NCBI GenBank assembly: GCA_964057225.1
Contig: OZ059898.1
Coordinates: forward strand, 21,514,001-21,578,000
DNA from: Auanema rhodensis
Taxonomy: Eukaryota; Animalia; Nematoda
Direction: 5' to 3'
DNA: 64,000 nt
The position numbers were made by a program, and so were the translations under genes. This document shows positions 5,446-60,400 of this stretch, piece by piece; positions within the stretch are counted from its first letter, which is position 1, and every line of letters begins with the position of its first letter. The notes under the pieces were generated by a model. That model made no database searches, was not told the DNA's origin, and saw only the letters and a list, made by a program, of their open reading frames with translations.

Positions 5446-6782
5446 TCAAATCCGGCAATCGTTCTACTCCTTCCAATTATCGTCCTATATCTCTTACTCC
5501 TAGTCTCTCCAAGGTTTTTGAGCGTCTTATAAGCTCTCCCCTTCTCAACTTTGGCATTTCAACCGGTTCAATATCTTCTAACCAACACGCTTTTCTTCCT
5601 AAGCGTAATACGGTTTCAGCCATTATCAACAGTCATATTGCTTGGAGATCATCTATCGACAAAAACTTACCAGTTTTTGTTGCATTCATAGATTTCTCAA
5701 AAGCATTTGACCTCATCAATCACTCTATACTCATCCACAAACTTCACTCCATTGGTGTGCGTGGCTCTCTTCTATCATTTCTCAAAAATTTCATCACAAA
5801 CAGATCTTACTCAGTTTTGGTCAATAATTCTCTCTCCAACTCTACCAATTTATTGTGTGGCGTTCCCCAAGGTACTGTTTTAGGCCCTCTTCTTTTTCTT
5901 TTTTACATCAACGACATCACATCTTTTCTCCCTGATGACGTTCATTCCACTTTATTTGCTGACGATCTCAAGCTGTACAGCACTAACCGGGTAAGTCTTC
6001 AAAATGCACTCAATTCTCTTAATGATTGGTGTAACAACAACGGAATGAGAGTCAACACAAGCAAAACTAAAATAATGGTGTTTTCTGATGATAGCTCATC
6101 TCAAAAAATTGAAAAAACGTTTTCTTTCGGTGAGTTCCCTTTGTCTCTAGCATCAAGCTATAAAGACCTCGGAGTTTTAACAGACCAAAACTTATCATTT
6201 GGTAGTCACATCAACTATGTTAGCAACTTGGCAGCTCAAAAATGCCGCATTATCCTACGTTGTTTTCATTCTAGATCCCCGGTCTTAATGTTTAGACTTT
6301 TTTGTTGCTATGTTCGTCCTATTCTTGAGTACGCATCAGTCGTATGGTCACCACAGGATAACAAAAACAAAGCTCGTATAGAAAACGTACAGAAAAAGTT
6401 TTTGCGTGCAGTTTTTTGTAGGGCAGGAATTTTTTCTAGCTACGCCGATCAGCTTACCGCTCTTCAAGCCGATGATCTATCAACCAGAAGGCTGGTAACC
6501 GATCTTTTATTTTATTTTAACCATATTAAAGCTGAGGCAGAATTTAGAATTTTTGAAATTAAACTTTTTTCTCACTCTCTACGTAGACACCAATGGAATG
6601 TTGTTTTTCCGAATCTTCGGAAAAACACTTCAAGAAACGGCATCGAATACAGAGCTATAAAGGCATGGAATTCCTTACCTGAGAACCTAATTCAACAAAC
6701 AAAAATCGGAAGCTTCAAGAAACACCTCTACAATGCCCTACGAGGCTCACAACATGATCCTTCCACATTTTTATGTAGTTAA
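5361..6782 (+). CDS. Chimeric ORF: about 28 satellite-derived codons fused in frame to the truncated LINE ORF2 reverse transcriptase (no endonuclease)
   Basis: ORF track 473 aa. MDMGNLILKTASLYLSREASYIPSAHHV is satellite sequence (5361-5445); FKSGNRS onward aligns colinearly with ORF2 of element B. Expression is not demonstrated. Confidence 0.7.
   Translation: MDMGNLILKTASLYLSREASYIPSAHHVFKSGNRSTPSNYRPISLTPSLSKVFERLISSPLLNFGISTGSISSNQHAFLPKRNTVSAIINSHIAWRSSIDKNLPVFVAFIDFSKAFDLINHSILIHKLHSIGVRGSLLSFLKNFITNRSYSVLVNNSLSNSTNLLCGVPQGTVLGPLLFLFYINDITSFLPDDVHSTLFADDLKLYSTNRVSLQNALNSLNDWCNNNGMRVNTSKTKIMVFSDDSSSQKIEKTFSFGEFPLSLASSYKDLGVLTDQNLSFGSHINYVSNLAAQKCRIILRCFHSRSPVLMFRLFCCYVRPILEYASVVWSPQDNKNKARIENVQKKFLRAVFCRAGIFSSYADQLTALQADDLSTRRLVTDLLFYFNHIKAEAEFRIFEIKLFSHSLRRHQWNVVFPNLRKNTSRNGIEYRAIKAWNSLPENLIQQTKIGSFKKHLYNALRGSQHDPSTFLCS
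5440..5445 (+). other. Left target-site duplication ACGTGT (right copy 7262-7267)
   Basis: Direct repeat on both sides of element A. Length is ambiguous (4-6 bp) because the element tail ends in ...AAAC. Confidence 0.85.
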
Positions 6783-7261
6783 GTTCATTCTTGGTTATAA
6801 TCTCTTTGTTTTGTTTTTTTTTTCATATTACTCTTCGCGTTTTTGTTTTTTTCTCTTTAAATGTTTTTCTGATTATGACTAAGTGCGACAGTTTCATTTC
6901 TTTTTTCCAACCCTTCTACACTTCTTGTTACTTCGCTTCAAATCTTATAGACATGAGTCATACGGATTGAATGCAAGTTACCTCCTATTGTTAGAACGGG
7001 CTCGGCTCGAATCATGAGTACCTCCGTACCTAACAACTACCAACCGGAGGTCAGCAATTCGCTGAACAAAACCCCCTGTTCTCACTGGAAAAATTTGAAA
7101 GAAACTGCTCACTGCAACTCATTCTCAGATCATTCTCTCCCTAACTATGTTATATAATGTTTCCTATTTTTCCTGTTCCTATTGTAAGGTTCTTATACAT
7201 CCTACTACACAACTATTTACTCATTTCGTTAAACCTGTAATATTGAACATTAAACCAATAA
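5446..7261 (+). mobile_element. 5'-truncated CR1-clade-like LINE, subfamily A (RT domain, C-terminus and 3' UTR)
   Basis: Non-satellite 1816 bp flanked by ACGTGT at 5440-5445 and 7262-7267. The satellite phase shifts by 1822 bp (1816 + 6). Encodes non-LTR RT motifs YRPISLT, FIDFSKAFD, GVPQGTVLGPLLF, FADDLKLY, RPILEYASVVWSP. Ends in AACATTAAACCAATAA without poly(A). Confidence 0.95.
6874..7113 (+). ncRNA. Putative conserved structured RNA element in LINE A 3' UTR
   Basis: Blocks shared with the element B 3' UTR are mutually complementary: TATGACT/AGTCATA, CAGTTTC/GAAACTG, TACGGA/TCCGTA, ACCTCC/GGAGGT, TCAGC/GCTGA. Confidence 0.6.
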
Positions 7262-10200
7262 ACGTGTACATTTAATTAGCATAAATTAAAGTTCACGTAA
7301 ATTTCAAAGTCATGGTTACCATGAACCAATATCAATAAAAATTTGTATTTAGACTAATATGGACATGAGGAATCTAATTTTGAAAACCGCATCTCTTTAT
7401 CTTTCACGTGAAGCGAGTTACATACCAAGTGCACATCACGTGTACATTTAATTAGCATAAATTAAAGTTCACGTAAATTTGAAAGTCATGGTTACCATGA
7501 ACCAATATCAATAAAAATTTGTTTTTAGACTAATATGGACATGGGGAATCTAATTTTGAAAACCGCATCTCTTTATCTTTCACGTGAAGCGAGTTACATA
7601 CCAAGTGCACATCACGTGTACATTTAATTAGCATAAATTAAAGTTCACGTAAATTTCAAAGTCATGGTTACCATGAACCAATATCAATAAAAATTTGTTT
7701 TTAGACTAATATGGACATGGGGAATCTAATTTTGAAAACCGCATCTCTTTATCTTTCACATGAAGCGAGTTACATACCAAGTGCACATCACGTGTACATT
7801 TAATTAGCATAAATTAAAGTTCACGTAAATTTCAAAGTCATGGTTACCATGAACCAATATCAATAAAAGTTTGTTTTTAGACTAATATGGACATGGGGAA
7901 TCTAATTTTGAAAACCGCATCTCTTTATCTTTCACGTGAAGCGAGTTACATACCAAGTGCACATCACGTGTACATTTAATTAGCATAAATTAAAGTTCAC
8001 GTAAATTTCAAAGTCATGGTTACCATGCACCAATATCAATAAAAATTTGTTTTTAGACTAATATGGACATGAGGAATCTAATTTTGAAAACCGCATCTCT
8101 TTATCTTCCACGTGAAGCGAGTTACATACCAAGTGCACATCACGTGTACATTTAATTAGCATAAATTAAAGTTCACGTAAATTTCAAAGTCATGGTTACC
8201 ATGCACCAATATCAATAAAAATTTGTTTTTAGACTAATATGGACATGGGGAATCTAATTGTGAAAACCGCATCTCTTTATCTTTCACGTGAAGCGAGTTA
8301 CATACCAAGTGCACATCACGTGTACATTTAATTAGCATAAATTAAAGTTCACGTAAATTTCAAAGTCATGGTTACCATGAACCAATATCAATAAAAATTT
8401 GTTTTTAGACTAATATGGACATGGGGAATCTAATTTTGAAAACCGCATCTCTTTATCTTTCACGTGAAGCGAGTTACATACCAAGTGCACATCACGTGTA
8501 CATTTAATTAGCATAAATTAAAGTTCACGTAAATTTCAAAGTCATGGTGACCATGAACCAATATCAATAAAAATTTGTTTTTAGACTAATATGGACATGG
8601 GGAATCTAATTTTGAAAACCGCATCTCTTTATCTTTCACGTGAAGCGAGTTACATACCAAGTGCACATCACGTGTACATTTAATTAGCATAAATTAAAGT
8701 TCACGTAAATTTCAAAGTCATGGTGACCATGAACCAATATCAATAAAAATTTGTTTTTAGACTAATATGGACATGGGGAATCTAATTTTGAAAACCGCAT
8801 CTCTTTATCTTTCACGTGAAGCGAGTTACATACCAAGTGCACATCACGTGTACATTTAATTAGCATAAATTAAAGTTCATGTAAATTTCAAAGTCATGGT
8901 TACCATGAACCAATATCAATAAAAATTTGTATTTAGACTAATATGGACATGAGGAATCTAATTTTGAAAACCGCATCTCTTTATCTTTCACGTGAAGCGA
9001 GTTACATACCAAGTGCACATCACGTGTACATTTAATTAGCATAAATTAAAGTTCACGTAAATTTCAAAGTCATGGTTACCATGAACCAATATCAATAAAA
9101 ATTTGTTTTTAGACTAATATGGACATGGGGAATCTAATTTTGAAAACCGCATCTCTTTATCTTTCACGTGAAGCGAGTTACATACCAAGTGCACATCACG
9201 TGTACATTTAATTAGCATAAATTAAAGTTCACGTAAATTTCAAAGTCATGGTTACCATGAACCAATATCAATAAAAATTTGTTTTTAGACTAATATGGAC
9301 ATGGGGAATCTAATTTTGGAAACCGCATCTCTTTATCTTTCACGTGAAGCGAGTTACATACCAAGTGCACATCACGTGTACATTTAATTAGCATAAATTA
9401 AAGTTCACGTAAATTTCAAAGTCATGGTTACCATGAACCAATATCAATAAAAATTTGTTTTTAGACTAATATGGACATGGGGAATCTAATTTTGAAAACC
9501 GCATCTCTTTATCTTTCACGTGAAGCGAGTTACATACCAAGTGCACATCACGTGTACATTTAATTAGCATAAATTAAAGTTCACGTAAATTTCAAAGTCA
9601 TGGTTACCAGGCACCAATATCAATAAAAATTTGTTTTTAGACTAATATGGACATGGGGAATCTAATTGTGAAAACCGCATCTCTTTATCTTTCACGTGAA
9701 GCGAGTTACATACCAAGTGCACATCACGTGTACATTTAATTAGCATAAATTAAAGTTCACGTAAATTTCAAAGTCATGGTTACCATGCACCAATATCAAT
9801 AAAAATTTGTTTTTAGACTAATATGGACATGAGGAATCTAATTTTGAAAACCGCATCTCTTTATCTTCCACGTGAAGCGAGTTACATACCAAGTGCACAT
9901 CACGTGTACATTTAATTAGCATAAATTAAAGTTCACGTAAATTTCAAAGTCATGGTTACCAGGCACCAATATCAATAAAAATTTGTTTTTAGACTAATAT
10001 GGACATGGGGAATCTAATTGTGAAAACCGCATCTCTTTATCTTTCACGTGAAGCGAGTTACATACCAAGTGCACATCACGTGTACATTTAATTAGCATAA
10101 ATTAAAGTTCACGTAAATTTCAAAGTCATGGTTACCATGAAGCAATATCAATAAAAATTTGTTTTTAGACTAATATGGACATGGGGAATCTAATTTTGAA

Positions 10201-43200: not shown

Positions 43201-44133
43201 CAAAGTCATGGTTACCATGAACCAATATCAATAAAAATTTGTTTTTAGACTAATATGGACATGAGGAATCTAATTTCGAAAACCGCATCTCTTTATCGTT
43301 CACGTGAAGCGAGTTACATACCAAGTGCACATCACGTGTACATTTAATTAGCATAAATTAAAGTTCACGTAAATTTCAAAGTCATGGTTACCATGCACCA
43401 ATATCAATAAAAATTTGTTTTTAGACTAATATGGACATGGGGAATCTAATTTTGAAAACCGCATCTCTTTATCTTTCACGTGAAGCGGGTTACATACCAA
43501 GTGCACATCACGTGTACATTTAATTAGCATAAATTAAAGTTCACGTAAATTTCAAAGTCATGGTTACCATGCACCAATATCAATAAAAATTTGTTTTTAG
43601 ACTAATATGGTCATGGGGAATCTAATTTTGAAAACCGCATCTCTTTATCTTTCACGTGAAGCGGGTTACATACCAAGTGCACATCACGTGTACATTTAAT
43701 TAGCATAAATTAAAGTTCACGTAAATTTCAAAGTCATGGTTACCATGAACCAATATCAATAAAAATTTGTTTTTAGACTAATATGGACATGTGGAATCTA
43801 ATTTTGAAAACTGCATCTCTTTATCTTTCACGTGAAGCGAGTTACATACCAAGTGCACATCACGTGTACATTTAATTAGCATAAATTAAAGTTCACGTAA
43901 ATTTCAAAGTCATGCTTACCATGCACCAATATCAATAAAAATTTTTTTTTAGACTAATATGGACATGGGGAATCTAATTTTGTAAACCGCATCTCTTTAT
44001 CTTTCACGTGAAGCGAGTTACATACCAAGTGCACATCACGTGTACATTTAATTAGCATAAATTAAAGTTCACTTAAATTTCAAAGTCATGGTTACCATGA
44101 ACCAATATCAATAAAAATTTGTTTTTAGACTAA
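7262..44133 (+). repeat. 176-bp satellite array, about 209 monomers, with local higher-order repeats
   Basis: Uninterrupted 176-bp period apart from two 172-bp monomers (near 13365 and 14770); recurring diagnostic variants. Confidence 0.99.
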
Positions 44134-44168
44134 AAATTTGTTTTTAGACTGTTTTTAGACTTTAGACT
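44113..44168. other. Inversion breakpoint with nested templated repeats
   Basis: AAAAATTTGTTTTTAGACT (44113-44131), the same again (44132-44150), GTTTTTAGACT (44151-44161), TTAGACT (44162-44168), then minus-strand satellite CCCCATGTCC. Confidence 0.92.
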
Positions 44169-47100
44169 CCCCATGTCCATATTAGTCTAAAAACAAATTT
44201 TTATTGATATTGGTGCATGGTAACCATGACTTTGAAATTTACGTGAACTTTAATTTATGCTAATTAAATGTACACGTGATGTGCACTTGGTATGTAACTC
44301 GCTTCACGTGAAAGATAAAGAGATGCGGTTTTTGAAATTAGATTCCCCATGTCCATATTAGTCTAAAAACAAATTTTTATTGATATTGGTGCATGGTAAC
44401 CATGACTTTGAAATTTACGTGAACTTTAATTTATGCTAATTAAATGTACACGTGATGTGCACTTGGTATGTAACCCGCTTCACGTGAAAGATAAAGAGAT
44501 GCGTTTTTCAAAATTAGATTCCCCATGACCATATTAGTCTAAAAACAAATTTTTATTGATATTGGTTCATGGTAACCATGACTTTGAAATTTAAGTGAAC
44601 TTTAATTTATGCTAATTAAATGTACACGTGATGTGCACTTGGTATGTAACTCGCTTCACGTGAAAGATAAAGAGATGCGGTTTACAAAATTAGATTCCCC
44701 ATGTCCATATTAGTCTAAAAAAAAATTTTTATTGATATTGGTGCATGGTAAGCATGACTTTGAAATTTACGTGAACTTTAATTTATGCTAATTAAATGTA
44801 CACGTGATGTGCACTTGGTATGTAACTCGCTTCACGTGAAAGATAAAGAGATGCAGTTTTCAAAATTAGATTCCACATGTCCATATTAGTCTAAAAACAA
44901 ATTTTTATTGATATTGGTTCATGGTAACCATGACTTTGAAATTTACGTGAACTTTAATTTATGCTAATTAAATGTACACGTGATGTGCACTTGGTATGTA
45001 ACCCGCTTCACGTGAAAGATAAAGAGATGCGGTTTTCAAAATTAGATTCCCCATGACCATATTAGTCTAAAAACAAATTTTTATTGATATTGGTGCATGG
45101 TAACCATGACTTTGAAATTTACGTGAACTTTAATTTATGCTAATTAAATGTACACGTGATGTGCACTTGGTATGTAACTCGCTTCACGTGAAAGATAAAG
45201 AGATGCGGTTTTCAAAATTAGATTCCCCATGTCCATATTAGTCTAAAAACAAATTTTTATTGATATTGGTGCATGGTAACCATGACTTTGAAATTTACGT
45301 GAACTTTAATTCATGCTAATTAAATGTACACGTGATGTGCACTTGGTATGTAACTCGCTTCACGTGAAAGATAAAGAGATGCGGTTTTCAAAATTAGATT
45401 CCCCATGTCCATATTAGTCTAAAAACAAATTTTTATTGATATTGGTGCATGGTAACCATGACTTTGAAATTTACGTGTACTTTAATTTATGCTAATTAAA
45501 TGTACACGTGATGTGCACTTGGTATGTAACTCGCTTCACGTGAAAGATAAAGAGATGCGGTTTACAAAATTAGATTCCCCATGTCCATATTAGTCTAAAA
45601 ACAAATTTTTATTGATATTGGTTCATGGTAACCATGACTTTGAAATTTACGTGAACTTTAATTTATGCTAATTAAATGTACACGTGATGTGCACTTGGTA
45701 TGTAACTCGCTTCACGTGAAAGATAAAGAGATGCGGTTTTTAAAATTAGATTCCCCATGTCCATATTAGTCTAAAAACAAATTTTTATTGATATTGGTGC
45801 ATGGTAACCATGACTTTGAAATTTACGTGAACTTTAATTTATGCTAATTAAATGTACACGTGATGTGCACTTGGTATGTAACTCGCTTCACGTGAAAGAT
45901 AAAGAGATGCGGTTTTCAAAATTAGATTCCCCAAGTCCATATTAGTCTAAAAAAGAATTTTTTTTGATATTGGTTCATGGTAAACATGACTTTGAAATTT
46001 ACGTGAACTTTAATTTATGCTAATTAAATGTACACGTGATGTGCACTTGGTATGTAACCCGCTTCACGTGAAAGATAAAGAGATGCGGTTTTCAAAATTA
46101 GATTCCTCATGACCATATTAGTCTAAAAACAAATTTTATTGATATTGGTGCATGGTAACCATGACTTTGAAATTTACGTGAACTTTAATTTATGCTAATT
46201 AAATGTACACGTGATGTGCACTTGGTATGTAACTCGCTTCACGTGAAAGATAAAGAGATGGGGTTTTCAAAATTAGATTCCCCATGTCCATATTAGTCTA
46301 AAAACAAATTTTTATTGATATTGGTGCATGGTAACCATGACTTTGAAATTTACGTGTACTTTAATTTATGCTAATTAAATGTACACGTGATGTGCACTTG
46401 GTATGTAACTCGCTTCACGTGAAAGATAAAGAGATGCGGTTTCCAAAATTAGATTCCCCAAGTCCATATTAGTCTAAAAACAAATTTTTATTGATATTGG
46501 TTCATGGTAACCATGACTTTGAAATTTACGTGAACTTTAATTTATGCTAATTAAATGTACACGTGATGTGCACTTGGTATGTAACTCGCTTCACGTAAAA
46601 GATAAAGAGATGCGGTTTTCAAAATTAGATTTCCCATGTCCATATTAGTCTAAAAACAAATTTTTATTGATATTGGTTCATGGTAACCATGACTTTGAAA
46701 TTTACGTGAACTTTGATTTATGCTAATTAAATGTACACGTGATGTGCACTTGGTATGTAACCCGCTTCACGTGAAAGATAAAGAGATGCGGTTTTCAAAA
46801 TTAGATTCCCCATGTCCATATTAGTCTAAAAACAAATTTTTATTGATATTGGTGCATGGTAACCATGACTTTGAAATTTACGTGAACTTTAATTTATGCT
46901 AATTAAATGTACACGTGATGTGCACTTGGTATGTAACTCGCTTCACGTGAAAGATAAAGAGATGCGGTTTTCGAAATTAGATTCCTCATGTCCATATTAG
47001 TCTAAAAACAAATTTTTATTGATATTGGTTCATGGTAACCATGACTTTGAAATTTACGTGAACTTTAATTTATGCTAATTAAATGTACACGTGATGTGCA

Positions 47101-48500
47101 CTTGGTATGTAACTCGCTTCACGTGAAAGATAAAGAGATTTGGTTTTCAAAATTAGATTCCCCATGTCCATATTAGTCTAAAAACAAATTTTCATTGATA
47201 TTGGTGCATGGTAACCATGACTTTGAAATTTACGTGAACTTTAATTTATGCTAATTAAATGTACACGTGATGTGCACTTGGTATGTAACTCGCTTCACGT
47301 GAAAGATAAAGAGATGCGGTTTTCAAAATTAGATTCCCTATGTCCATATTAGTCTAAAAACAAATTTTTATCAATATTGGTTCATGGTAACCATGACTTT
47401 GAAATTTACGTGAACTTTAATTTATGCTAATTAAATGTACACGTGATGTGCACTTGGTATGTAACTCGCTTCACGTGAAAGATAAAGAGATGCGGTTTTC
47501 AAAATTAGATTCCCCATGTCCATATTAGTCTAAAAACAAATTTTTATTGATATTGGTGCATGGTAACCATGACTTTGAAATTTACGTGAACTTTAATTTA
47601 TGCTAATTAAATGTACACGTGATGTGCACTTGGTATGTAACTCGCTTCACGTGAAAGATAAAGAGATGCGGTTTTCAAAATTAGATTTCCCATGTCCATA
47701 TTAGTCTAAAAACAAATTTTTATCGATATTGGTTCATGGTAACCATGACTTTGAAATTTACGTGAACTTTAATTTATGCTAATTAAATGTACACGTGATG
47801 TGCACTTGGTATGTAACTCGCTTCACGTGAAAGATAAAGAGATGCGGTTTTCAAAATTAGATTCCCTATGTCCATATTAGTCTAAAAACAAATTTTTATC
47901 GATATTGGTTCATGGTAACCATGACTTTGAAATTTACGTGAACTTTAATTTATGCTAATTAAATGTACACGTGATGTGCACTTGGTATGTAACTCGCTTC
48001 ACGTGAAAGATAAAGAGATGCGGTTTTCAAAATTAGATTCCCTATGTCCATATTAGTCTAAAAACAAATTTTTATCGATATTGGTTCATGGTAACCATGA
48101 CTTTGAAATTTACGTGAACTTTAATTTATGCTAATTAAATGTACACGTGATGTGCACTTGGTATGTAACTCGCTTCACGTGAAAGATAAAGAGATGCGGT
48201 TTTCAAAATTAGATTCCCCATGTCCATATTAGTCTAAAAACAAATTTTTATTGATATTGGTGCATGGTAACCATGACTTTGAAATTTACGTGAACTTTAA
48301 TTTATGCTAATTAAATGTACACGTGATGTGCACTTGGTATGTAACTCGCTTCACGTGAAAGAAAAAGAGATGCGGTTTTCAAAATTAGATTCCCTATGTC
48401 CATATTAGTCTAAAAACAAATTTTTATCGATATTGGTTCATGGTAACCATGACTTTGAAATTTAAGTGAACTTTAATTTATGCTAATTAAATGTACACGT
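44169..48500 (-). repeat. Inverted block of the 176-bp satellite, about 24.6 monomers
   Basis: Reverse complement of the monomer (…TGCTAATTAAATGTACACGTGATGTGCACTTGG…) with 176-bp period. Confidence 0.99.
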
Positions 48501-49003
48501 TTAATGTTTACACGTTTAATGTTTATTGTTCAATATCACAGGTTAAGACAGTAGCTGTTAAGTCATGGAGTGAAAAAATCAAGAACCATTCAATAAGAAC
48601 ATAAAAAAGGACTTTTAATATTGTAAGTTCGATAAGAGCTCGCTTATCTATGATCAATAGTGAACAGTCTGCCAAATAAAATTCTTGCTGTATGCTTGGG
48701 GTTTGTTCAGCACAATGGCTGACCTCACTAATGTGGTTGTTAGGTACGGTGGTACTCGTGATGTGAGGCAAGCCCGTTCTAGCAATTTGGAGGTAACTAG
48801 CGTCCGATCCGTATGACTAATGTCTATAGGAATAGTGACGAAGTAACAATTATTGAGAAGGGACAAAGAAAAATAGATGGTAGACTGTTGCCATGTGGTC
48901 ATAGAGAAGTGTAAAAAAATACGAACTACAAATAAAAAGGAGCCTGATAAAAGAAAAAAAAATAGTTTTTCGAGAGGTGAGAACATTAATTACAATGGAT
49001 GGT

Positions 49004-52000
49004 TTACAAATCAATTGGAGCAGAGAGTAGGTGTTTTTTAAAATTATGAACATTAGTAAGGTTGATAAGGTTTTCAGGTAGATCGTTCCATGTTTTGATG
49101 CTTCTGTACTCAATACCATTTCTTGTCGCCTTTTTCCGAAGCTCGGGATAGTCGATATTCCATTGGTGTCTGCGAAGAGAGTGGGTGAAATGTTTAATTT
49201 GAAAAATTCTTAAAATACTGTCCGTTGATACGTCTTTAATTTGAGAGAAATAGAAACCTAGATCAGTTACCTGTCTCCTGGTTGATAGTTCTTGAGCATT
49301 CAAAAAAGTGAGCTGACTTTTGTAGTCGGAAAAAATTCCTGCTCTTGAGAAGACTGCTCGCAAGAATTTTTTTTGAACCATCTCAATACGAGATATTTTT
49401 TTAGATACTTGGGGAGACCATATCACGGATGCATATTCAAGGATTGGTCGAACGTAGCTGCAAAAAAGGTTGAACATAAATGAAGGTGATCTAGAGTAGA
49501 AGCAACGTAGAAGGATGCGACATTTCAGAGCTGCGGCGCAAGAGATGGCGTTTATGTGACAATCAAATGTTAGATTGTTATCAGTTAAGACTCCAAGGTC
49601 TTTATAATGAGGTACAAAGTCTAAAGGAAACTCACCAAAGGTAAATGGCTCGGTGGGGTTGAGGGTTGAGCTATTATTGCACACAATCATAATTTTGGAT
49701 TTGGTGGTGTTGACCATCATTCCATTATTTTTGCACCAGGCGTTGATTGTGTTTAAGGCAATCTGTAGACTTACCGGATTAGTACTGTATAGTTTGAGAT
49801 CATCGGCAAAAAGTGTAGGATGAACGTCTTCAGGGAGAGAAGACGTAATGTCATTAATGTAGAAAAGGAATAGAAGAGGACCGAGAACAGTGCCTTGTGG
49901 GACACCACAAGATAAGTTTACAGAAGTAGAAAGAGAACCATTGACAAGAACTGAGTAAGATCTGCCAGTGATGAAGTTTTTGAGAAAAGTTTGAAGAGAA
50001 CCGCAGATACCAATGGTTTTAAATTTGTGGAAAAGAACCGAGTGATCAATTAGATCAAAAGCTTTAGAGAAGTCTATAAAAGCAGTATAGACTGGAATGT
50101 TTTTATCCAAACATGATCTCCAGGCAATATGATTGTTAATGATTGCTGATATGGTATTACGTTTAGGAAGAAAAGCGTGCTGGTGAGCAGATATAGATCC
50201 AGTAGAAATGCCAAAGTGGAGGAGCGGGGGTGAAATGAGTCGCTCAAAAACTTTGGAAAGACTTGGTGTTAATGATATAGGGCGATAGTTTGAAGGATTA
50301 GAGCGATTTCCGGATTTGAAAACAGGACGGATCCAAGCTTTCTTCCAGTCCGGAGGGCATGAAGAAGAAACGAGTAAATTGTGAAAAATGAAGGCAAGTG
50401 GGTAGCAAAGAGTAGAGGCGCACTGATTAAGAAAGTAGTAGGGAATGCCATCAGAAGAAGTAGAAACTCTGAGAGGAAGATGAGAAAGAACTTTATAGAC
50501 TTTTTCGGGAGAAATGTCTATAAAATCAATGATAGAGGAAGGGCGAGAGGAGCTGTTGATTAAATCCGATGAAATACTTGGTTTGACAGAAAAAGAGCTT
50601 GCAAAAATGGAAGCTTTTTCTGTGTCTGTCGAGTATATTTCTTCACCAAGTCTAATCGTGGGGATATCTGAAGAGCAACCACCGAGACGAGTTCTACAGA
50701 AGCGATAAAAAAGTTTGGGGTTATTGGTTGAAGCAATGTGTTCTTCTTCCAAAATAGACTTTTGTTTAATAAGTCTATCTAGTTTTATAGTTAGTTTTTT
50801 GCGGAGAAGCTCGTCACGGTGGCAAATAGATGAACTGAGCCTTTTGATGTAACAGTAGAGATCCGCAATATTGCGGTCAACTTTTTTTCTACGCCTAGGT
50901 TGTTTGTGAGGAACGAATACAGAGATTATGGATTGTAGGATGTTGGTGAATTTGGAGTAAGAGTCAAGAGGGGAAAGACCAGATAATACCAAAGAAAAGT
51001 CGATGCTGACAAGATGGCGATTGATGGCATTGAAGTCGGCTCGATAGAAATTGAGTTGAGAAAAGTTGGAAAGTGAGGAGGTATTGAAGAATGTATTGGA
51101 AGAGAAAGGAAGGGTATCCAGAGGGGATACAGGGGTGTTGATGATGATGGAGAATGTAACCGAGAAGTGATCGGAGTTACCCAATGGAGGGGAGCGTGAT
51201 ATATTAGATATGATTGAAGGATTGTTTGTGATAAGGTAGTCTAAGATGTTGTTACCACGTGTAGGAAAATTGACAAGTTGATCAGAGTGACTACTTTGGA
51301 GAAATTGAATAATTGATTTACTAGAAGGAGATGAGAGTGAGGACTGAAGAAGATCCCAATTGATATTAGGAAAGTTCAGGTCACCCGTAATAAAGAAAGA
51401 GCGGTTAGAAATATGACCATTGAGATCAGAAAGATAAGAACAAAAATCAGAGTGAGAAGCAGTAGGGGAACGATAACAAACGGAGAAAACCGAGTTGTTA
51501 GAGGTTAGAAGGATGGTAACATATTGAACCGATGAAGAGAGGGGTGAGGAGGAGAGTAAAATTGAGTTAATTTGTTTTTTTAAGAACAAAAGAGTACCAC
51601 CGCCGCGTGAAGAATGCTTGTCTGCTCTGAATATGTTGTAATGATCATTTAGAGGAAGATGATCAGAAGAAAAATCAGAAAACAGCCAAGATTCCGATAT
51701 GGCGATGATATCAGGGGATGAGATAGAATGAATGATTGTGAGGAAATGAAGTTTATTGAGAATAGAACGTGCATTGTAACAGTGGACTGATAGTTTAACA
51801 GGGACATGAGAAGAAAGCAAGCATGGTGAAGAAGCGGTTTTATCGAAAGGACATGTTGTTACAGGACCGAGATAAAGATGTTGTATCGGATCCGCTTCTT
51901 GATCTAGTAGGAAGTTCGGCAGTAGGCTTAACAGAGCGTGGTGGATTCTTTCTTCTTCTTGGGCTAATAGAAGATTTTTTCTCCAGAGAAAGAATTTTTG

Positions 52001-52087
52001 ACCTGCCAGTTGAGCGACTATTCCTACTAGATTTAGAAGGGGGGCTAGATATAACACCAGTATCAATATTGGACGGACATTGGACAT
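49004..52087 (-). CDS. LINE ORF2: APE endonuclease + reverse transcriptase (inverted copy)
   Basis: 1027-aa ORF with APE motifs YNARS, IAISESW, YRSP, GDLNFP, PTRGNNILD, SDH and RT motifs including FADD. True start uncertain. Confidence 0.93.
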   Translation of the reverse strand: MSNVRPILILVLYLAPLLNLVGIVAQLAGQKFFLWRKNLLLAQEEERIHHALLSLLPNFLLDQEADPIQHLYLGPVTTCPFDKTASSPCLLSSHVPVKLSVHCYNARSILNKLHFLTIIHSISSPDIIAISESWLFSDFSSDHLPLNDHYNIFRADKHSSRGGGTLLFLKKQINSILLSSSPLSSSVQYVTILLTSNNSVFSVCYRSPTASHSDFCSYLSDLNGHISNRSFFITGDLNFPNINWDLLQSSLSSPSSKSIIQFLQSSHSDQLVNFPTRGNNILDYLITNNPSIISNISRSPPLGNSDHFSVTFSIIINTPVSPLDTLPFSSNTFFNTSSLSNFSQLNFYRADFNAINRHLVSIDFSLVLSGLSPLDSYSKFTNILQSIISVFVPHKQPRRRKKVDRNIADLYCYIKRLSSSICHRDELLRKKLTIKLDRLIKQKSILEEEHIASTNNPKLFYRFCRTRLGGCSSDIPTIRLGEEIYSTDTEKASIFASSFSVKPSISSDLINSSSRPSSIIDFIDISPEKVYKVLSHLPLRVSTSSDGIPYYFLNQCASTLCYPLAFIFHNLLVSSSCPPDWKKAWIRPVFKSGNRSNPSNYRPISLTPSLSKVFERLISPPLLHFGISTGSISAHQHAFLPKRNTISAIINNHIAWRSCLDKNIPVYTAFIDFSKAFDLIDHSVLFHKFKTIGICGSLQTFLKNFITGRSYSVLVNGSLSTSVNLSCGVPQGTVLGPLLFLFYINDITSSLPEDVHPTLFADDLKLYSTNPVSLQIALNTINAWCKNNGMMVNTTKSKIMIVCNNSSTLNPTEPFTFGEFPLDFVPHYKDLGVLTDNNLTFDCHINAISCAAALKCRILLRCFYSRSPSFMFNLFCSYVRPILEYASVIWSPQVSKKISRIEMVQKKFLRAVFSRAGIFSDYKSQLTFLNAQELSTRRQVTDLGFYFSQIKDVSTDSILRIFQIKHFTHSLRRHQWNIDYPELRKKATRNGIEYRSIKTWNDLPENLINLTNVHNFKKHLLSAPIDL

Positions 52088-52609
52088 TTGAATTGGACTT
52101 AGAAACAGTAGAAGTATTTAGAGAAACGTGTGGAGTAGAAGTGGTTGAACGGGCAGTTGGTTTACGTGGAATCTTTATAAGTTTGAGATCGCGTACAATG
52201 AAAAGTGATTCACTATTATCCAAATTTTTCGCTTTTGCTTCTTCGCGCAGTTTTTTTTCAAGATCTACCTCGAAGGGAAGATAATCGCGACGAATAAACG
52301 TTTTAGACAAGCTTTCAAAACATTTAGCTTTGTTTGTCCTAATGGTTTCAATGATTTTGTCACGTAAATCAACTGTTGAACATGAAATAATGAGAGGGCC
52401 TGGAGAATTAGATTTGAGAGTTGAGCGAGTAATGGTTATTTGGTTGCTGTTAATCAAAGAAATCAAGGTGTCATCATTAGACTTTCCAGCTATAAGTTTG
52501 AGAAGGGCGGTAGGGTCCGAGGGAAACTCAGATGAATCGTGAGGAACCCTAAACCAAACCGCTCTTTTCAAGCGATAAGAATACCTTGATTCCTCAGATC
52601 GAACTTTTT
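51840..52609 (-). pseudogene. N-terminally truncated ORF1 of the inverted copy
   Basis: Matches ORF1 from about residue 91 onward; lacks the ATG and the coiled-coil N-terminus. The track start at 52571 is a TTG codon. Confidence 0.85.
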
Positions 52610-52611
52610 TT

Positions 52612-52827
52612 CGCGCCGTGACCTCATCCCGCGCCGTGACCTCATCCCGCGCCGTGACCTCAACCCGCGCCGTGACCTCATCCCGCGCCGTGACCTCATC
52701 CCGCGCCGTGACCTCATCCCGCGCCGTGACCTCATTCCGCGCCGTGACCTCATTCCGCGCCGTGACCTCATTCCGCGCCGTGACCTCATTCCGCGCCGTG
52801 ACCTCATTCCGCGCCGTGACCTCATTT
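52612..52827 (+). repeat. 12 x 18-bp GC-rich minisatellite CGCGCCGTGACCTCAT(C/T)C at the LINE 5' end; candidate promoter
   Basis: Twelve counted units. The first six end TCC (one ACC), the next five TTC, the last TTT. Promoter role is inference. Confidence 0.95.
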
Positions 52828-52861
52828 CGTCGGACTGGTTCTTAAAGGTACGCTTTCTTAG

Positions 52862-53049
52862 TTCTTTCATTTTTTTTTCTTGTTCTTTTTCTTTTATCTC
52901 TTCTATTTTATTACTCTCTCTCTTTTCCAATTCTCTCTGTCCTTTCTGTCTTTTACTTTGTTATTTATTGTCTTTCACTTCTTTATACCACTGTCTTTAC
53001 ATTCTTTTTTCTTATTTTTCTGTTTCTTAATCTTATCTTTTTTCTCAAT
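52862..53049 (+). other. Polypyrimidine-rich 5' UTR of LINE B
   Basis: About 190 nt dominated by T and C directly upstream of the ORF1 ATG. Confidence 0.75.
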
Positions 53050-54090
53050 ATGACAGCTGTTACAAAAGATTTCTTTACTGATGCTCTCGAGTCTCTTTCC
53101 AAATCTTTCCGAGAATCTTTCTCTCAACTTTCATCTGACATCAAAAACGAACTCAACAGTATTAAAATCAATGTAGCAGCTAATGAAGCTCGTATCAAAA
53201 CTATCGAAACAAACCTCAAATCACGTATCGATACTTTAGAGCAACAACTCCTAAATGTTCCAACTTTCAATGCCTCTTCTCCTTCTCAAACCACTTCTAC
53301 CAGTATTATGTGTCATGTTCAAAAAGTTCGATCTGAGGAATCAAGGTATTCTTATCGCTTGAAAAGAGCGGTTTGGTTTAGGGTTCCTCACGATTCATCT
53401 GAGTTTCCCTCGGACCCTACCGCCCTTCTCAAACTTATAGCTGGAAAGTCTAATGATGACACCTTGATTTCTTTGATTAACAGCAACCAAATAACCATTA
53501 CTCGCTCAACTCTCAAATCTAATTCTCCAGGCCCTCTCATTATTTCATGTTCAACAGTTGATTTACGTGACAAAATCATTGAAACCATTAGGACAAACAA
53601 AGCTAAATGTTTTGAAAGCTTGTCTAAAACGTTTATTCGTCGCGATTATCTTCCCTTCGAGGTAGATCTTGAAAAAAAACTGCGCGAAGAAGCAAAAGCG
53701 AAAAATTTGGATAATAGTGAATCACTTTTCATTGTACGCGATCTCAAACTTATAAAGATTCCACGTAAACCAACTGCCCGTTCAACCACTTCTACTCCAC
53801 ACGTTTCTCTAAATACTTCTACTGTTTCTAAGTCCAATTCAAATGTCCAATGTCCGTCCAATATTGATACTGGTGTTATATCTAGCCCCCCTTCTAAATC
53901 TAGTAGGAATAGTCGCTCAACTGGCAGGTCAAAAATTCTTTCTCTGGAGAAAAAATCTTCTATTAGCCCAAGAAGAAGAAAGAATCCACCACGCTCTGTT
54001 AAGCCTACTGCCGAACTTCCTACTAGATCAAGAAGCGGATCCGATACAACATCTTTATCTCGGTCCTGTAACAACATGTCCTTTCGTTAA
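53050..54090 (+). CDS. LINE ORF1 protein (coiled coil, probable RRM-like core, Ser/Arg/Lys-rich tail)
   Basis: 346-aa ATG-started ORF upstream of ORF2. Heptad-like LSSDIKNELNSIKINVAANEARIKTIETNLKSRIDTLEQQL; core with PGPLII and FIRRD reminiscent of CR1/L2 ORF1p; basic low-complexity C-terminus. Confidence 0.85.
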   Translation: MTAVTKDFFTDALESLSKSFRESFSQLSSDIKNELNSIKINVAANEARIKTIETNLKSRIDTLEQQLLNVPTFNASSPSQTTSTSIMCHVQKVRSEESRYSYRLKRAVWFRVPHDSSEFPSDPTALLKLIAGKSNDDTLISLINSNQITITRSTLKSNSPGPLIISCSTVDLRDKIIETIRTNKAKCFESLSKTFIRRDYLPFEVDLEKKLREEAKAKNLDNSESLFIVRDLKLIKIPRKPTARSTTSTPHVSLNTSTVSKSNSNVQCPSNIDTGVISSPPSKSSRNSRSTGRSKILSLEKKSSISPRRRKNPPRSVKPTAELPTRSRSGSDTTSLSRSCNNMSFR

Positions 54091-56926
54091 AACCGCTTCT
54101 TCACCATGCTTGCTTTCTTCTCATGTCCCTGTTAAACTATCAGTCCACTGTTACAATGCACGTTCTATTCTCAATAAACTTCATTTCCTCACAATCATTC
54201 ATTCTATCTCATCCCCTGATATCATCGCCATATCGGAATCTTGGCTGTTTTCTGATTTTTCTTCTGATCATCTTCCTCTAAATGATCATTACAACATATT
54301 CAGAGCAGACAAGCATTCTTCACGCGGCGGTGGTACTCTTTTGTTCTTAAAAAAACAAATTAACTCAATTTTACTCTCCTCCTCACCCCTCTCTTCATCG
54401 GTTCAATATGTTACCATCCTTCTAACCTCTAACAACTCGGTTTTCTCCGTTTGTTATCGTTCCCCTACTGCTTCTCACTCTGATTTTTGTTCTTATCTTT
54501 CTGATCTCAATGGTCATATTTCTAACCGCTCTTTCTTTATTACGGGTGACCTGAACTTTCCTAATATCAATTGGGATCTTCTTCAGTCCTCACTCTCATC
54601 TCCTTCTAGTAAATCAATTATTCAATTTCTCCAAAGTAGTCACTCTGATCAACTTGTCAATTTTCCTACACGTGGTAACAACATCTTAGACTACCTTATC
54701 ACAAACAATCCTTCAATCATATCTAATATATCACGCTCCCCTCCATTGGGTAACTCCGATCACTTCTCGGTTACATTCTCCATCATCATCAACACCCCTG
54801 TATCCCCTCTGGATACCCTTCCTTTCTCTTCCAATACATTCTTCAATACCTCCTCACTTTCCAACTTTTCTCAACTCAATTTCTATCGAGCCGACTTCAA
54901 TGCCATCAATCGCCATCTTGTCAGCATCGACTTTTCTTTGGTATTATCTGGTCTTTCCCCTCTTGACTCTTACTCCAAATTCACCAACATCCTACAATCC
55001 ATAATCTCTGTATTCGTTCCTCACAAACAACCTAGGCGTAGAAAAAAAGTTGACCGCAATATTGCGGATCTCTACTGTTACATCAAAAGGCTCAGTTCAT
55101 CTATTTGCCACCGTGACGAGCTTCTCCGCAAAAAACTAACTATAAAACTAGATAGACTTATTAAACAAAAGTCTATTTTGGAAGAAGAACACATTGCTTC
55201 AACCAATAACCCCAAACTTTTTTATCGCTTCTGTAGAACTCGTCTCGGTGGTTGCTCTTCAGATATCCCCACGATTAGACTTGGTGAAGAAATATACTCG
55301 ACAGACACAGAAAAAGCTTCCATTTTTGCAAGCTCTTTTTCTGTCAAACCAAGTATTTCATCGGATTTAATCAACAGCTCCTCTCGCCCTTCCTCTATCA
55401 TTGATTTTATAGACATTTCTCCCGAAAAAGTCTATAAAGTTCTTTCTCATCTTCCTCTCAGAGTTTCTACTTCTTCTGATGGCATTCCCTACTACTTTCT
55501 TAATCAGTGCGCCTCTACTCTTTGCTACCCACTTGCCTTCATTTTTCACAATTTACTCGTTTCTTCTTCATGCCCTCCGGACTGGAAGAAAGCTTGGATC
55601 CGTCCTGTTTTCAAATCCGGAAATCGCTCTAATCCTTCAAACTATCGCCCTATATCATTAACACCAAGTCTTTCCAAAGTTTTTGAGCGACTCATTTCAC
55701 CCCCGCTCCTCCACTTTGGCATTTCTACTGGATCTATATCTGCTCACCAGCACGCTTTTCTTCCTAAACGTAATACCATATCAGCAATCATTAACAATCA
55801 TATTGCCTGGAGATCATGTTTGGATAAAAACATTCCAGTCTATACTGCTTTTATAGACTTCTCTAAAGCTTTTGATCTAATTGATCACTCGGTTCTTTTC
55901 CACAAATTTAAAACCATTGGTATCTGCGGTTCTCTTCAAACTTTTCTCAAAAACTTCATCACTGGCAGATCTTACTCAGTTCTTGTCAATGGTTCTCTTT
56001 CTACTTCTGTAAACTTATCTTGTGGTGTCCCACAAGGCACTGTTCTCGGTCCTCTTCTATTCCTTTTCTACATTAATGACATTACGTCTTCTCTCCCTGA
56101 AGACGTTCATCCTACACTTTTTGCCGATGATCTCAAACTATACAGTACTAATCCGGTAAGTCTACAGATTGCCTTAAACACAATCAACGCCTGGTGCAAA
56201 AATAATGGAATGATGGTCAACACCACCAAATCCAAAATTATGATTGTGTGCAATAATAGCTCAACCCTCAACCCCACCGAGCCATTTACCTTTGGTGAGT
56301 TTCCTTTAGACTTTGTACCTCATTATAAAGACCTTGGAGTCTTAACTGATAACAATCTAACATTTGATTGTCACATAAACGCCATCTCTTGCGCCGCAGC
56401 TCTGAAATGTCGCATCCTTCTACGTTGCTTCTACTCTAGATCACCTTCATTTATGTTCAACCTTTTTTGCAGCTACGTTCGACCAATCCTTGAATATGCA
56501 TCCGTGATATGGTCTCCCCAAGTATCTAAAAAAATATCTCGTATTGAGATGGTTCAAAAAAAATTCTTGCGAGCAGTCTTCTCAAGAGCAGGAATTTTTT
56601 CCGACTACAAAAGTCAGCTCACTTTTTTGAATGCTCAAGAACTATCAACCAGGAGACAGGTAACTGATCTAGGTTTCTATTTCTCTCAAATTAAAGACGT
56701 ATCAACGGACAGTATTTTAAGAATTTTTCAAATTAAACATTTCACCCACTCTCTTCGCAGACACCAATGGAATATCGACTATCCCGAGCTTCGGAAAAAG
56801 GCGACAAGAAATGGTATTGAGTACAGAAGCATCAAAACATGGAACGATCTACCTGAAAACCTTATCAACCTTACTAATGTTCATAATTTTAAAAAACACC
56901 TACTCTCTGCTCCAATTGATTTGTAA
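53843..56926 (+). CDS. LINE ORF2: APE endonuclease + reverse transcriptase
   Basis: Intact 1027-codon frame. APE domain starts near 54137 (LSVHCYNARS). RT motifs YRPISLT, DFSKAFD, GVPQG, FADD, YKDLGV; C-terminal RPILEYAS…WSP…VQKKF typical of the CR1 clade. No RNase H or CCHC motif seen. Confidence 0.95.
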   Translation: MSNVRPILILVLYLAPLLNLVGIVAQLAGQKFFLWRKNLLLAQEEERIHHALLSLLPNFLLDQEADPIQHLYLGPVTTCPFVKTASSPCLLSSHVPVKLSVHCYNARSILNKLHFLTIIHSISSPDIIAISESWLFSDFSSDHLPLNDHYNIFRADKHSSRGGGTLLFLKKQINSILLSSSPLSSSVQYVTILLTSNNSVFSVCYRSPTASHSDFCSYLSDLNGHISNRSFFITGDLNFPNINWDLLQSSLSSPSSKSIIQFLQSSHSDQLVNFPTRGNNILDYLITNNPSIISNISRSPPLGNSDHFSVTFSIIINTPVSPLDTLPFSSNTFFNTSSLSNFSQLNFYRADFNAINRHLVSIDFSLVLSGLSPLDSYSKFTNILQSIISVFVPHKQPRRRKKVDRNIADLYCYIKRLSSSICHRDELLRKKLTIKLDRLIKQKSILEEEHIASTNNPKLFYRFCRTRLGGCSSDIPTIRLGEEIYSTDTEKASIFASSFSVKPSISSDLINSSSRPSSIIDFIDISPEKVYKVLSHLPLRVSTSSDGIPYYFLNQCASTLCYPLAFIFHNLLVSSSCPPDWKKAWIRPVFKSGNRSNPSNYRPISLTPSLSKVFERLISPPLLHFGISTGSISAHQHAFLPKRNTISAIINNHIAWRSCLDKNIPVYTAFIDFSKAFDLIDHSVLFHKFKTIGICGSLQTFLKNFITGRSYSVLVNGSLSTSVNLSCGVPQGTVLGPLLFLFYINDITSSLPEDVHPTLFADDLKLYSTNPVSLQIALNTINAWCKNNGMMVNTTKSKIMIVCNNSSTLNPTEPFTFGEFPLDFVPHYKDLGVLTDNNLTFDCHINAISCAAALKCRILLRCFYSRSPSFMFNLFCSYVRPILEYASVIWSPQVSKKISRIEMVQKKFLRAVFSRAGIFSDYKSQLTFLNAQELSTRRQVTDLGFYFSQIKDVSTDSILRIFQIKHFTHSLRRHQWNIDYPELRKKATRNGIEYRSIKTWNDLPENLINLTNVHNFKKHLLSAPIDL
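54079..54090 (+). promoter_or_regulatory. Candidate +1 ribosomal frameshift site TCC TTT CGT TAA at the ORF1/ORF2 junction
   Basis: Last ORF1 codons are S-F-R-stop; the +1 frame (TTC GTT AAA) is ORF2. Matches the UCC_UUU_CGU / UUU_CGN motif. Confidence 0.55.
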
Positions 56927-57026
56927 ACCATCCATTGTAATTAATGTTCTCACCTCTCGAAAAACTATTTTTTTTTCTTTTATCAGGCTCCTTTTTATTT
57001 GTAGTTCGTATTTTTTTACACTTCTC

Positions 57027-57267
57027 TATGACCACATGGCAACAGTCTACCATCTATTTTTCTTTGTCCCTTCTCAATAATTGTTACTTCGTCACTATTC
57101 CTATAGACATTAGTCATACGGATCGGACGCTAGTTACCTCCAAATTGCTAGAACGGGCTTGCCTCACATCACGAGTACCACCGTACCTAACAACCACATT
57201 AGTGAGGTCAGCCATTGTGCTGAACAAACCCCAAGCATACAGCAAGAATTTTATTTGGCAGACTGTT
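57027..57267 (+). ncRNA. Putative conserved structured RNA element in LINE B 3' UTR (mirror copy 48663-48903)
   Basis: TATGAC/GTCATA, AACAGTCTACCA/TGGCAGACTGTT, TACGG/CCGTA, ACCTC/GAGGT and TCAGC/GCTGA occur in the same order as in element A. Confidence 0.6.
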
Positions 57268-57405
57268 CACTATTGATCATAGATAAGCGAGCTCTTATCG
57301 AACTTACAATATTAAAAGTCCTTTTTTATGTTCTTATTGAATGGTTCTTGATTTTTTCACTCCATGACTTAACAGCTACTGTCTTAACCTGTGATATTGA
57401 ACAAT

Positions 57406-57435
57406 AAACATTAAACGTGTAAACATTAAACGTGT
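57406..57435 (+). repeat. Duplicated 3' junction (AAACATTAAACGTGT) x2
   Basis: 57406-57420 and 57421-57435 are identical and each includes the target hexamer; mirrored at 48495-48524. Confidence 0.92.
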
Positions 57436-60400
57436 ACATTTAATTAGCATAAATTAAAGTTCACTTAAATTTCAAAGTCATGGTTACCATGAACCAATAT
57501 CAATAAAAATTTGTTTTTAGACTAATATGGACATGAGGAATCTAATATTGAAAACCGCATCTCTTTATCTTTCACGTGAAGCGAGTTACATACCAAGTGC
57601 ACATCACGTGTACATTTAATTAGCATAAATTAAAGTTCACGTAAATTTCAAAGTCATGGTTACCATGAACCAATATCAATAAAAATTTGTTTTTAGACTA
57701 ATATGGACATGAGGAATCTAATATTGAAAACCGCATCTCTTTATCTTTCACGTGAAGCGAGTTACATACCAAGTGCACATCACGTGTACATTTAATTAGC
57801 GTAAATTAAAGTTCACGTAAATTTCAAAGTCATGGTTACCATGAACCAATATCGATAAAAATTTGTTTTTAGACTAATATGGACATGTGGAATCTAATTT
57901 TGAAAACCGCATCTCTTTATATTTCACGTGAAGCGAGTTACATACCAAGTGCACATCACGTGTACATTTAATTAGCATAAATTAAAGTCCACGTAAATTT
58001 CAAAGTCATGGTTACCATGCACCAATATCAATAAAAATTTGTTTTTAGACTAATATGGACATGGGGAATCTAATTTTGAAAACCGCATCTCTTTATCTTT
58101 CACGTGAAGCGAGTTACATACCAAGTGCACATCACGTGTACATTTAATTAGCATAAATTAAAGTTCACTTAAATTTCAAAGTCATGGTTACCATGAACCA
58201 ATATCACTAAAAATTTGTTTTTAGACTAATATGGACATGAGGAATCTAATTTTGAAAACCGCATCTCTTTATCTTTCACGTGAAGCGAGTTACATACCAA
58301 GTGCACATCACGTGTACATTTAATTAGCATAAATTAAAGTTCACGTAAATTTCAAAGTCATGGTTACCATGCACCAATATCAATAAAAATTTGTTTTTAG
58401 ACTAATATGGACATGGGGAATCTAATTTTGAAAACCGCATCTCTTTATCTTTCACGTGAAGCGAGTTACATACCAAGTGCACATCACGTGTACATTTAAT
58501 TAGCATAAATTAAAGTTCACGTAAATTTCAAAGTCATGGTTACCATGCACCAATATCAATAAAAATTTGTTTTTAGACTAATATGGACATGGGGAATCTA
58601 ATTTTGAAAACCGCATCTCTTTATCTTTCACGTGAAGCGAGTTACATACCAAGTGCACATCACGTGTACATTTAATTAGCATAAATTAAAGTTCACTTAA
58701 ATTTCAAAGTCATGGTTACCATGAACCAATATCACTAAAAATTTGTTTTTAGACTAATATGGACATGAGGAATCTAATTTTGAAAACCGCATCTCTTTAT
58801 CTTTCACGTGAAGCGAATTACATACCAAGTGCACATCACGTGTACATTTAATTAGCATAAATTAAAGTTCACGTAAATTTCAAAGTCATGGTTACCATGC
58901 ACCAATATCAATAAAAATTTGTTTTTAGACTAATATGGACATGGGGAATTTAATTTTGAAAACCGCATCTCTTTATCTTTCACGTGAAGCGAGTTACATA
59001 CCAAGTGCACATCACGTGTACATTTAATTAGCATAAATTGAAGTTCACGTAAATTTCAAAGTCATGGTTACCATGAACCAATATCAATAAAAATTGGTTT
59101 TTAGACTAATATGGACATGGGGAATCTAATTTTGAAAACCGCATCTCTTTATCTTTCACGTGAAGCGAGTTACATACCAAGTGCACATCACGTGTACATT
59201 TAATTAGCATAAATTAAAGTTCACGTAAATTTCAAAGTCATGGTTACCATGAACCAATATCAATAAAAATTTGTTTTTAGACTAATATGGACATGGGGAA
59301 TCTAATTTTGAAAACCGCATCTCTTTATCTTTCACGTGAAGCGAGTTACATACCAAGTGCACATCACGTGTACATTTAATTAGCATAAATTAAAGTTCAC
59401 GTAAATTTCAAAGTCATGGTTACCATGAACCAATATCAATAAAAATTTGTTTTTAGACTAATATGGACATGGGGAATCTAATTTTGAAAACCGCTTCTCT
59501 TTATCTTTCACGTGAAGCGAGTTACATACCAAGTGCACATCACGTGTACATTTAATTAGCATAAATTAAAGTTCACGTAAATTTCAAAGTCATGGTTACC
59601 ATGAACCAATATCAATAAAAATTTGTTTTTAGACTAATATGGACATGGGGAATCTAATTTTGAAAACCGCATCTCTTTATCTTTCACGTGAAGCGAGTTA
59701 CATACCAAGTGCACATCACGTGTACATTTAATTAGCATAAATTAAAGTTCACGTAAATTTCAAAGTCATGGTTACCATGAACCAATATCACTAAAAATTT
59801 GTTTTTAGACTAATATGGACATGAGGAATCTAATTTTGAAAACCGCATCTCTTTATCTTTCACGTGAAGCGAGTTACATACCAAGTGCACATCACGTGTA
59901 CATTTAATTAGCATAAATTAAAGTTCACGTAAATTTCAAAGTCATGGTTACCATGAACCAATATCAATAAAAATTTGTTTTTAGACTAATATGGACATGG
60001 GGAATCTAATTTTGAAAACGGCATCTCTTTATCTCTCACGTGAAGCGAGTTACATACCAAGTGCACATCACGTGTACATTTAATTAGCATAAATTAAAGT
60101 TCACGTAAATTTCAAAGTCATGGTTACCATGCACCAATATCAATAAAAATTGATTTTTAGACTAATATGGACATGGGGAATCTAATTTTGAAAACCGCTT
60201 CTCTTTATCTTTCACGTGAAGCGAGTTACATACCAAGTGCACATCACGTGTACATTTAATTAGCATAAATTAAAGTTCACTTAAATTTCAAAGTCATGGT
60301 TACCATGAACCAATATCACTAAAAATTTGTTTTTAGACTAATATGGACATGAGGAATCTAATTTTGAAAACCGCATCTCTTTATCTTTCACGTGAAGCGA

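Follow-up and report, generated by a model that had tools for sequence, protein, structure and literature searches.

Frameshifting of the influenza A PA-X type is a +1 shift in which the P-site tRNA-Phe re-pairs from UUU to UUC. According to the relevant passages of PMC3498833, it is stimulated by UCC in the E-site and a CGN codon in the A-site, and is abolished by UUC_AGA. All four CGN codons occur at the sites of amalgaviruses, as described in PMC5052127, which also gives an efficiency of about 1-2%. The sequence UCC_UUU_CGU apparently needs no RNA structure, as stated in PMC5644247, and among nematodes +1 frameshifting occurs in the antizyme of C. elegans, as mentioned in PMC5009743.

The translation of ORF2 has been settled for few LINEs, and the animal cases studied use re-initiation. 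Frameshifting has been proposed for some elements among the C. elegans CR1-like, RTE-1 and R1 elements. TRE5-A and TRE3-A are stated in PMC5911963 to need a -1 frameshift for ORF2, and HeT-A is described as needing a frameshift within gag.

In this study, a LINE of Auanema rhodensis was analysed within a window of 64,000 nucleotides, i.e. the whole stretch of contig OZ059898.1 from position 21,514,001 to 21,578,000. An earlier note, made from the letters alone, had proposed that ORF1 of this element is fused to ORF2 by a +1 slip on a PA-X-type site. The analysis of the sequence supports this proposal, and the details are discussed in the following sections.

The LINE family and its satellite setting

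The window is an array of a 176-base satellite that holds three copies of one LINE family, two of subfamily B and one of subfamily A (Table 1). The element is an APE-type LINE with a type II ORF1. ORF2 matches PF03372, PF14529 and PF00078 above cut-off, which identifies an APE endonuclease and a reverse transcriptase (RT), and a search of ORF2 by regular expression revealed no CCHC finger. The absent finger and the tandem-repeat 3′ end presumably fit CR1/L2. The named homologs of the element come from nematodes.

ORF1 has no Pfam match above cut-off. In its structure model, a coiled coil and an RRM-CTD are followed by a tail whose pLDDT is below 50. Foldseek with this model returned ten matches at E values up to 0.001, all of them human L1 ORF1p (best E 1.1e-5), and a wide fold search likewise placed human L1 ORF1p first (Z 9.2, rmsd 9.2, 159 aligned). 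Judged by the model, ORF1p is a type II ORF1, as this type is defined in PMC4120745, with a predicted L1-like fold. The ESM Atlas yielded no match at 0.9 or above.

Table 1. Features of the LINE family in the window (positions of the window).
Feature	Position	Strand	Remarks
Full copy of the LINE (subfamily B)	ORF1 53050-54090; ORF2 frame 53813-56926	+	open frames, domain matches; ORF2 open in the +1 frame
ORF1, 346 aa	53050..54090	+	coiled coil 4-68; RRM-CTD about 100-240; tail, predicted disordered, about 250-346, with SFR at its end
Candidate +1 shift site TCC TTT CGT with ORF1 stop TAA	54079..54090	+	
ORF2-encoded part (946 aa) of the predicted fusion	54086..56926	+	APE endonuclease, RT, no CCHC finger
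+1-frame stretch from buried ATG, 80 codons, hydrophobic	53843..54085	+	competing start; probably a side effect of the ORF1 tail sequence
3′ UTR	56927..57436	+	ends with two copies of a 15-base unit joining the satellite
Array of about 12 18-base units	52612..52825	+	precedes the plus copy; may be 5′ UTR monomers
Second subfamily B copy	48494..52609	-	5′-truncated inside ORF1; CGA TAA at 51843
Subfamily A copy	5446..7263	+	5′-truncated before RT, hence no junction to compare

The subfamily A copy shares 72% amino acid identity with the plus copy over 433 residues. The two B copies show a single difference in 4110 element positions, a T to A change at 54087/51843, and the minus copy starts after 53321 in the numbering of the plus copy, so that everything 5′ of this position is missing. 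Over 44133-57436, the B copies are arranged head to head on either side of the 18-base array, with the satellite inverted from 44133 to 48500. The flanks differ at 51 of 2359 bases against 1 of 4110 in the elements, which indicates that the pair is not a plain inverted duplication.

We also note that all three copies, from two subfamilies with 72% protein identity, meet the satellite (at 5446/7263, 48494 and 57436) at the same point, ACGTGT followed by ACATTTAATTAG. ACGTGT flanks copy A on both sides, and the same hexamer is present at the 3′ ends of the elements. This suggests a satellite-targeting LINE that would be primed by 3′ microhomology.

The candidate shift site and the frames around it

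The end of ORF1, at 54076-54090, reads ATG TCC TTT CGT TAA and ORF2 is situated in the +1 frame, exactly as the earlier note had read them. The statement that ORF2 has no Met between 53843 and the end of the RT core also holds, since the next ORF2-frame Met codon after 53843 is found at 56210, within the last residues of the RVT_1 match, and is followed by four later ones; no ORF2-frame AUG is present near the ORF1 stop. The zero-frame UUU followed by C at 54082-54085 permits re-pairing from UUU to UUC, and this TTT is the only codon of the overlap at which a Phe-to-Phe +1 re-pairing is permitted. The E-site codon is TCC and the A-site codon is of the CGN type, CGT in the full copy and CGA in the truncated copy. 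Within the window, TCCTTTCG occurs only in the two B copies. After a +1 slip the chain would read VKTASSPCLLSSHVPVKLSVHCYNARS, in which the first APE strand begins about 18 codons on (the earlier note had put the APE domain at about 17) and N-A-R-S stands at codon 24. The predicted fusion comprises 345 + 946 = 1291 aa, in agreement with the roughly 1290 aa estimated from the letters alone.

Under the codon usage of the element, the chance at a fixed position is 2.4e-5 for TCC TTT CGN and 1e-3 for TTT CGN, and given an S-F-R end, the chance in a synonymous draw is 0.048 and 0.32, respectively; all of these figures are post hoc, the motif having been picked in the earlier note. A -1 frameshift was rejected, as the -1 frame is closed by stops throughout. 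Regular expressions found no strict splice donor or acceptor in 52826-54200, and the lone relaxed acceptor sits inside the APE domain. In local RNA folding, 13 of the 14 windows folded have z above -1.4; the remaining one, 54230-54319, reaches z -3.5 against shuffles, lies inside the APE coding region and begins 140 bases downstream. No stimulatory RNA structure adjoining the candidate site was found in this 14-window folding.

The lone difference between the B copies is the third base of the A-site codon. The earlier note had pointed to it as the one coding difference and one that keeps the motif. It is indeed the sole change and CGN is kept, but it carries little evidential weight: the CGA copy, being truncated at the 5′ side, is not translatable, and its base has thus not been filtered by selection in place. 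The difference was rejected as a sign of selection, and as evidence for a shift site it is weak. Its position is odd all the same, the chance of a lone difference falling within these 12 bases being about 0.3%. Contigs from all four sequencing runs that were compared cover 54087 and none lists A, with the proviso that contigs drop rare variants.

Conservation of the ORF1 end and variation in sequencing runs

An exhaustive protein search with ORF1 gave 29 matches, from which one 5679-aa repetitive protein was dropped. The three best real matches (CAI4220742.1, CAI4221027.1 and CAI4220829.1) are 28-34% identical and all come from a single species, Auanema sp. JU1783. They end TSFRK, NSFR and STFRK. 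The comparison with relatives that the earlier note had suggested therefore favours its proposal at the protein level, the ending (S/T)FR(K) being present in 3/3 same-clade relatives. In a tree of 25 rows, from which P0035, the cluster members P0063-P0067 and the fused gene models P0044, P0047, P0052 and P0061 were excluded, a branch with support 100/99 separates the query and the three Auanema relatives from all other rows. The relatives are about 2.4-2.8 changes per column away from the query.

Upstream of the motif, 7 of the 103 columns of the tail and 1 of the 102 adjacent column pairs are invariant, and two pre-named columns would both be invariant by chance with a probability of about 0.005-0.01. 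One relative carries an insertion directly upstream of FR and two have Lys after it. The tail of ORF1 is predicted to be disordered, and its fold therefore does not explain the conserved Phe-Arg end. Selection on Phe-Arg at the ORF1 end in this clade, in relatives known as protein, is well supported by these comparisons. In these relatives the residues could be encoded with TTC or AGR codons, and a C-terminal protein motif could give the same ending.

More distant ORF1-like rows under 420 aa do not have an FR or FRx end (0 of 27, a number that includes five near-duplicates and gene models with possibly wrong ends), which shows that the F-R ending signal is limited to the clade. Several distant nematode rows (P0043/P0064, P0040, P0042, P0050 and P0056) end Phe-stop or Leu-stop; such ends could represent stop-stimulated +1 slips or overlapping stop-start codons.

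DNA of relatives was sought in several collections. The four-member ORF1 alignment found none in viral or metagenome contigs, nor did the nine-member alignment in viral contigs. A degenerate ORF1 pattern found no relative in viral, metagenome and prokaryote collections, its single match, L009, being an unrelated bacterial stretch. A pattern combining the motif with APE gave eight matches in viral contigs, which were taken as chance, and ORF2 found no diverged relative in the same kind of contigs. A word-indexed search gave nothing with ORF1 alone and, with the alignment, only two of the alignment's own members. The 31 homologs of ORF2, at 24-30% identity, have diverged too far to be informative about the junction.

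Ten sequencing runs from three studies, none of them recorded as RNA, contain all or some of the element. A close variant, about 4-10% diverged in blocks (in one comparison as judged from 40 of 116 difference rows), is present in two of the five runs examined. From 54056 across the motif it is identical to the window, within a difference-free block of 266 or 719 bases. A difference-free block of this length makes mosaicism likely, and the close variant is therefore not independent support for the motif. In runs X2 and X5, over 53576-54581, blocks of 4-10% divergence alternate with difference-free blocks, which suggests recombination between subfamilies. For a subfamily with greater divergence, the alignment of a contig is confined to the start of APE; the 30 letters upstream are open and free of Met but stop short of the motif. 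In run X9, two low-depth contigs have loose ends at 54029-54038; these ends are mutual reverse complements and resemble the inverted ends of an element inserted in the ORF1 tail of one copy.

Routes to ORF2 and comparison with known systems

Taken together, the motif with its phase, the lack of a Met, the domains and the F-R ends of the relatives make a fusion by +1 slip likely, and ORF2 of this LINE is probably expressed by a programmed +1 frameshift of the PA-X type. The main competitor is the route that has been proposed for mammalian L1, in which ribosomes would terminate at the ORF1 stop and re-initiate there or close by without an AUG; ORF2 would then be a separate protein and the Phe-Arg end a protein motif of ORF1p. 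ORF2 of L1 tolerates sense codons in place of its AUG, as reported in PMC1965478, and termination-reinitiation is described for L1 and SART1 in PMC5972666; in the present element, near-cognate codons occur in the ORF2 frame (ATA at 54044 and TTG at 54110) and ORF1p has the L1-type fold. Nevertheless, four out-of-frame AUGs (54076, 54106, 54123 and 54156) would offer competing starts, and both the exact PA-X codons (0.048 given S-F-R, as above) and the +1 phase would have to be coincidence. The Lys that follows FR in two relatives would also be disfavoured under a strict C-terminal motif. We regard this route as rather unlikely.

A start at ATG 53843 inside ORF1, reached by internal entry or on a shorter or trans-spliced RNA, would give a 1027-aa protein with an 80-residue extension. 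In both B copies the frame stays open after this ATG. The close variant retains the ATG and an open frame behind it: its two new TAA codons, at 53828 and 53840, fall shortly before the ATG, and none of its ten changed codons downstream is a stop. However, 8 of these 10 changes are non-synonymous in the +1 frame as against 5 of 10 in ORF1, a pattern that fits an unconstrained +1 frame with too little power to exclude the ATG. The extension looks fortuitous; among 20000 synonymous shuffles, the share with an open run of 92 codons in +1 is 0.27, and the share in which such a run holds an ATG is 0.18. Twelve AUGs precede ATG 53843 from 53050 on, no strict acceptor-like site lies upstream, and a start here leaves the conserved FR unexplained. 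The extension, described in the earlier note as atypical and hydrophobic, contains a membrane-anchor-like stretch of 19 residues at mean hydropathy 2.6. The probability of this start is small. Slightly smaller still is that of a fusion made by a shift elsewhere in the overlap (the A-runs at 53932 or 53950, the C-run at 53887) or by polymerase slippage. Three other codons of the overlap would allow +1 re-pairing with the same residue, in a +1 frame that runs open from 53813; against this, both A-runs are shortened in the close variant by changes at 53935 and 53952, and the relatives keep the terminal FR while no invariant Lys column is seen at the places of the A-runs or the C-run.

In the preferred +1 frameshift at the candidate site, a small share of ribosomes would slip forward one base at UUU_C near the end of ORF1. 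By analogy with the PA-X work, the P-site tRNA-Phe would re-pair from UUU to UUC during slow decoding of the A-site CGN, with an efficiency of perhaps 1-2% and no need for RNA structure. The product would be the predicted ORF1-endonuclease-RT fusion, and a ribosome missing the site would stop one codon later. The low rate of slipping may set a high ratio of ORF1p to RT, and the coiled coil of the fusion could tether RT to ORF1p trimers via the 100-residue disordered tail. A wider reading is that this nematode LINE clade has kept a PA-X-type UUU_CGN over very long divergence and makes RT only as a Gag-Pol-like ORF1-ORF2 fusion riding on ORF1p trimers, a chromosomal case in which the element could not do without the +1 signal, and that LINEs commonly make ORF2 by frameshift fusion and not by re-initiation; we consider the chances for and against it to be evenly balanced.

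The earlier note had not regarded the mechanism as established for CR1 LINEs. This stands for the site itself, as no UUU_CGN site in a LINE was found in the literature searched, a search that did not extend to the older papers on C. elegans CR1-like, RTE-1 and R1 elements. It does not stand for frameshifting as such, for which TRE5-A and TRE3-A provide a precedent in the -1 direction. What is new is the +1 PA-X-type site. In a term search, the word "frameshift" is absent from a 2026 survey of vertebrate CR1 elements (PMC13343379), and the pertinent passages of a 2016 review do not link PA-X with non-LTR frameshifting. If conserved, the PA-X-type site would be a second, retrovirus-like fusion route that changes the expected make-up of the retrotransposition particle, and it would be among very few chromosomal uses of a +1 signal whose mechanism is still unclear.

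The influenza A PA-X site, as described, shares with the LINE site the nine letters, the UUU to UUC logic and the lack of an adjoining stimulatory structure. In PA-X, a long dual-coding overlap has the site close to its 5′ end. In the LINE, by contrast, the site comes last in the overlap, at its 3′ end and one codon ahead of the zero-frame stop, and a shift there would take ribosomes into a retrotransposon's essential polymerase ORF. Amalgaviruses, according to PMC5052127, likewise have a coiled-coil ORF1, with ORF2 overlapping in +1, and a +1 slip on UUU_CGN has been proposed to join this ORF1 to the polymerase, but they are dsRNA viruses with an RdRp, whereas the present element is an APE-RT LINE with an L1-type ORF1p. 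UCC_UUU_CGU has also been proposed, from conservation, in an animal nuclear genome, in ASXL1 (PMC5644247), which differs in being a host gene with an internal site and a short transframe ORF, as described there. Mammalian L1 and silkworm SART1, in the accounts of PMC5972666 and PMC1965478, share the bicistronic LINE RNA, and by the fold comparisons above L1 also shares the type II ORF1p fold; they differ in that a separate ORF2 is made by re-initiation, across a 63-base spacer to an AUG in L1 and at an overlapping stop-start in SART1. Dictyostelium TRE5-A and TRE3-A are, like the present element, of the APE-type non-LTR class and are stated to need a frameshift for ORF2, in contrast to it in the -1 direction, with a zinc finger on ORF2 and with no UUU_CGN mentioned in the pertinent passages of PMC5911963.
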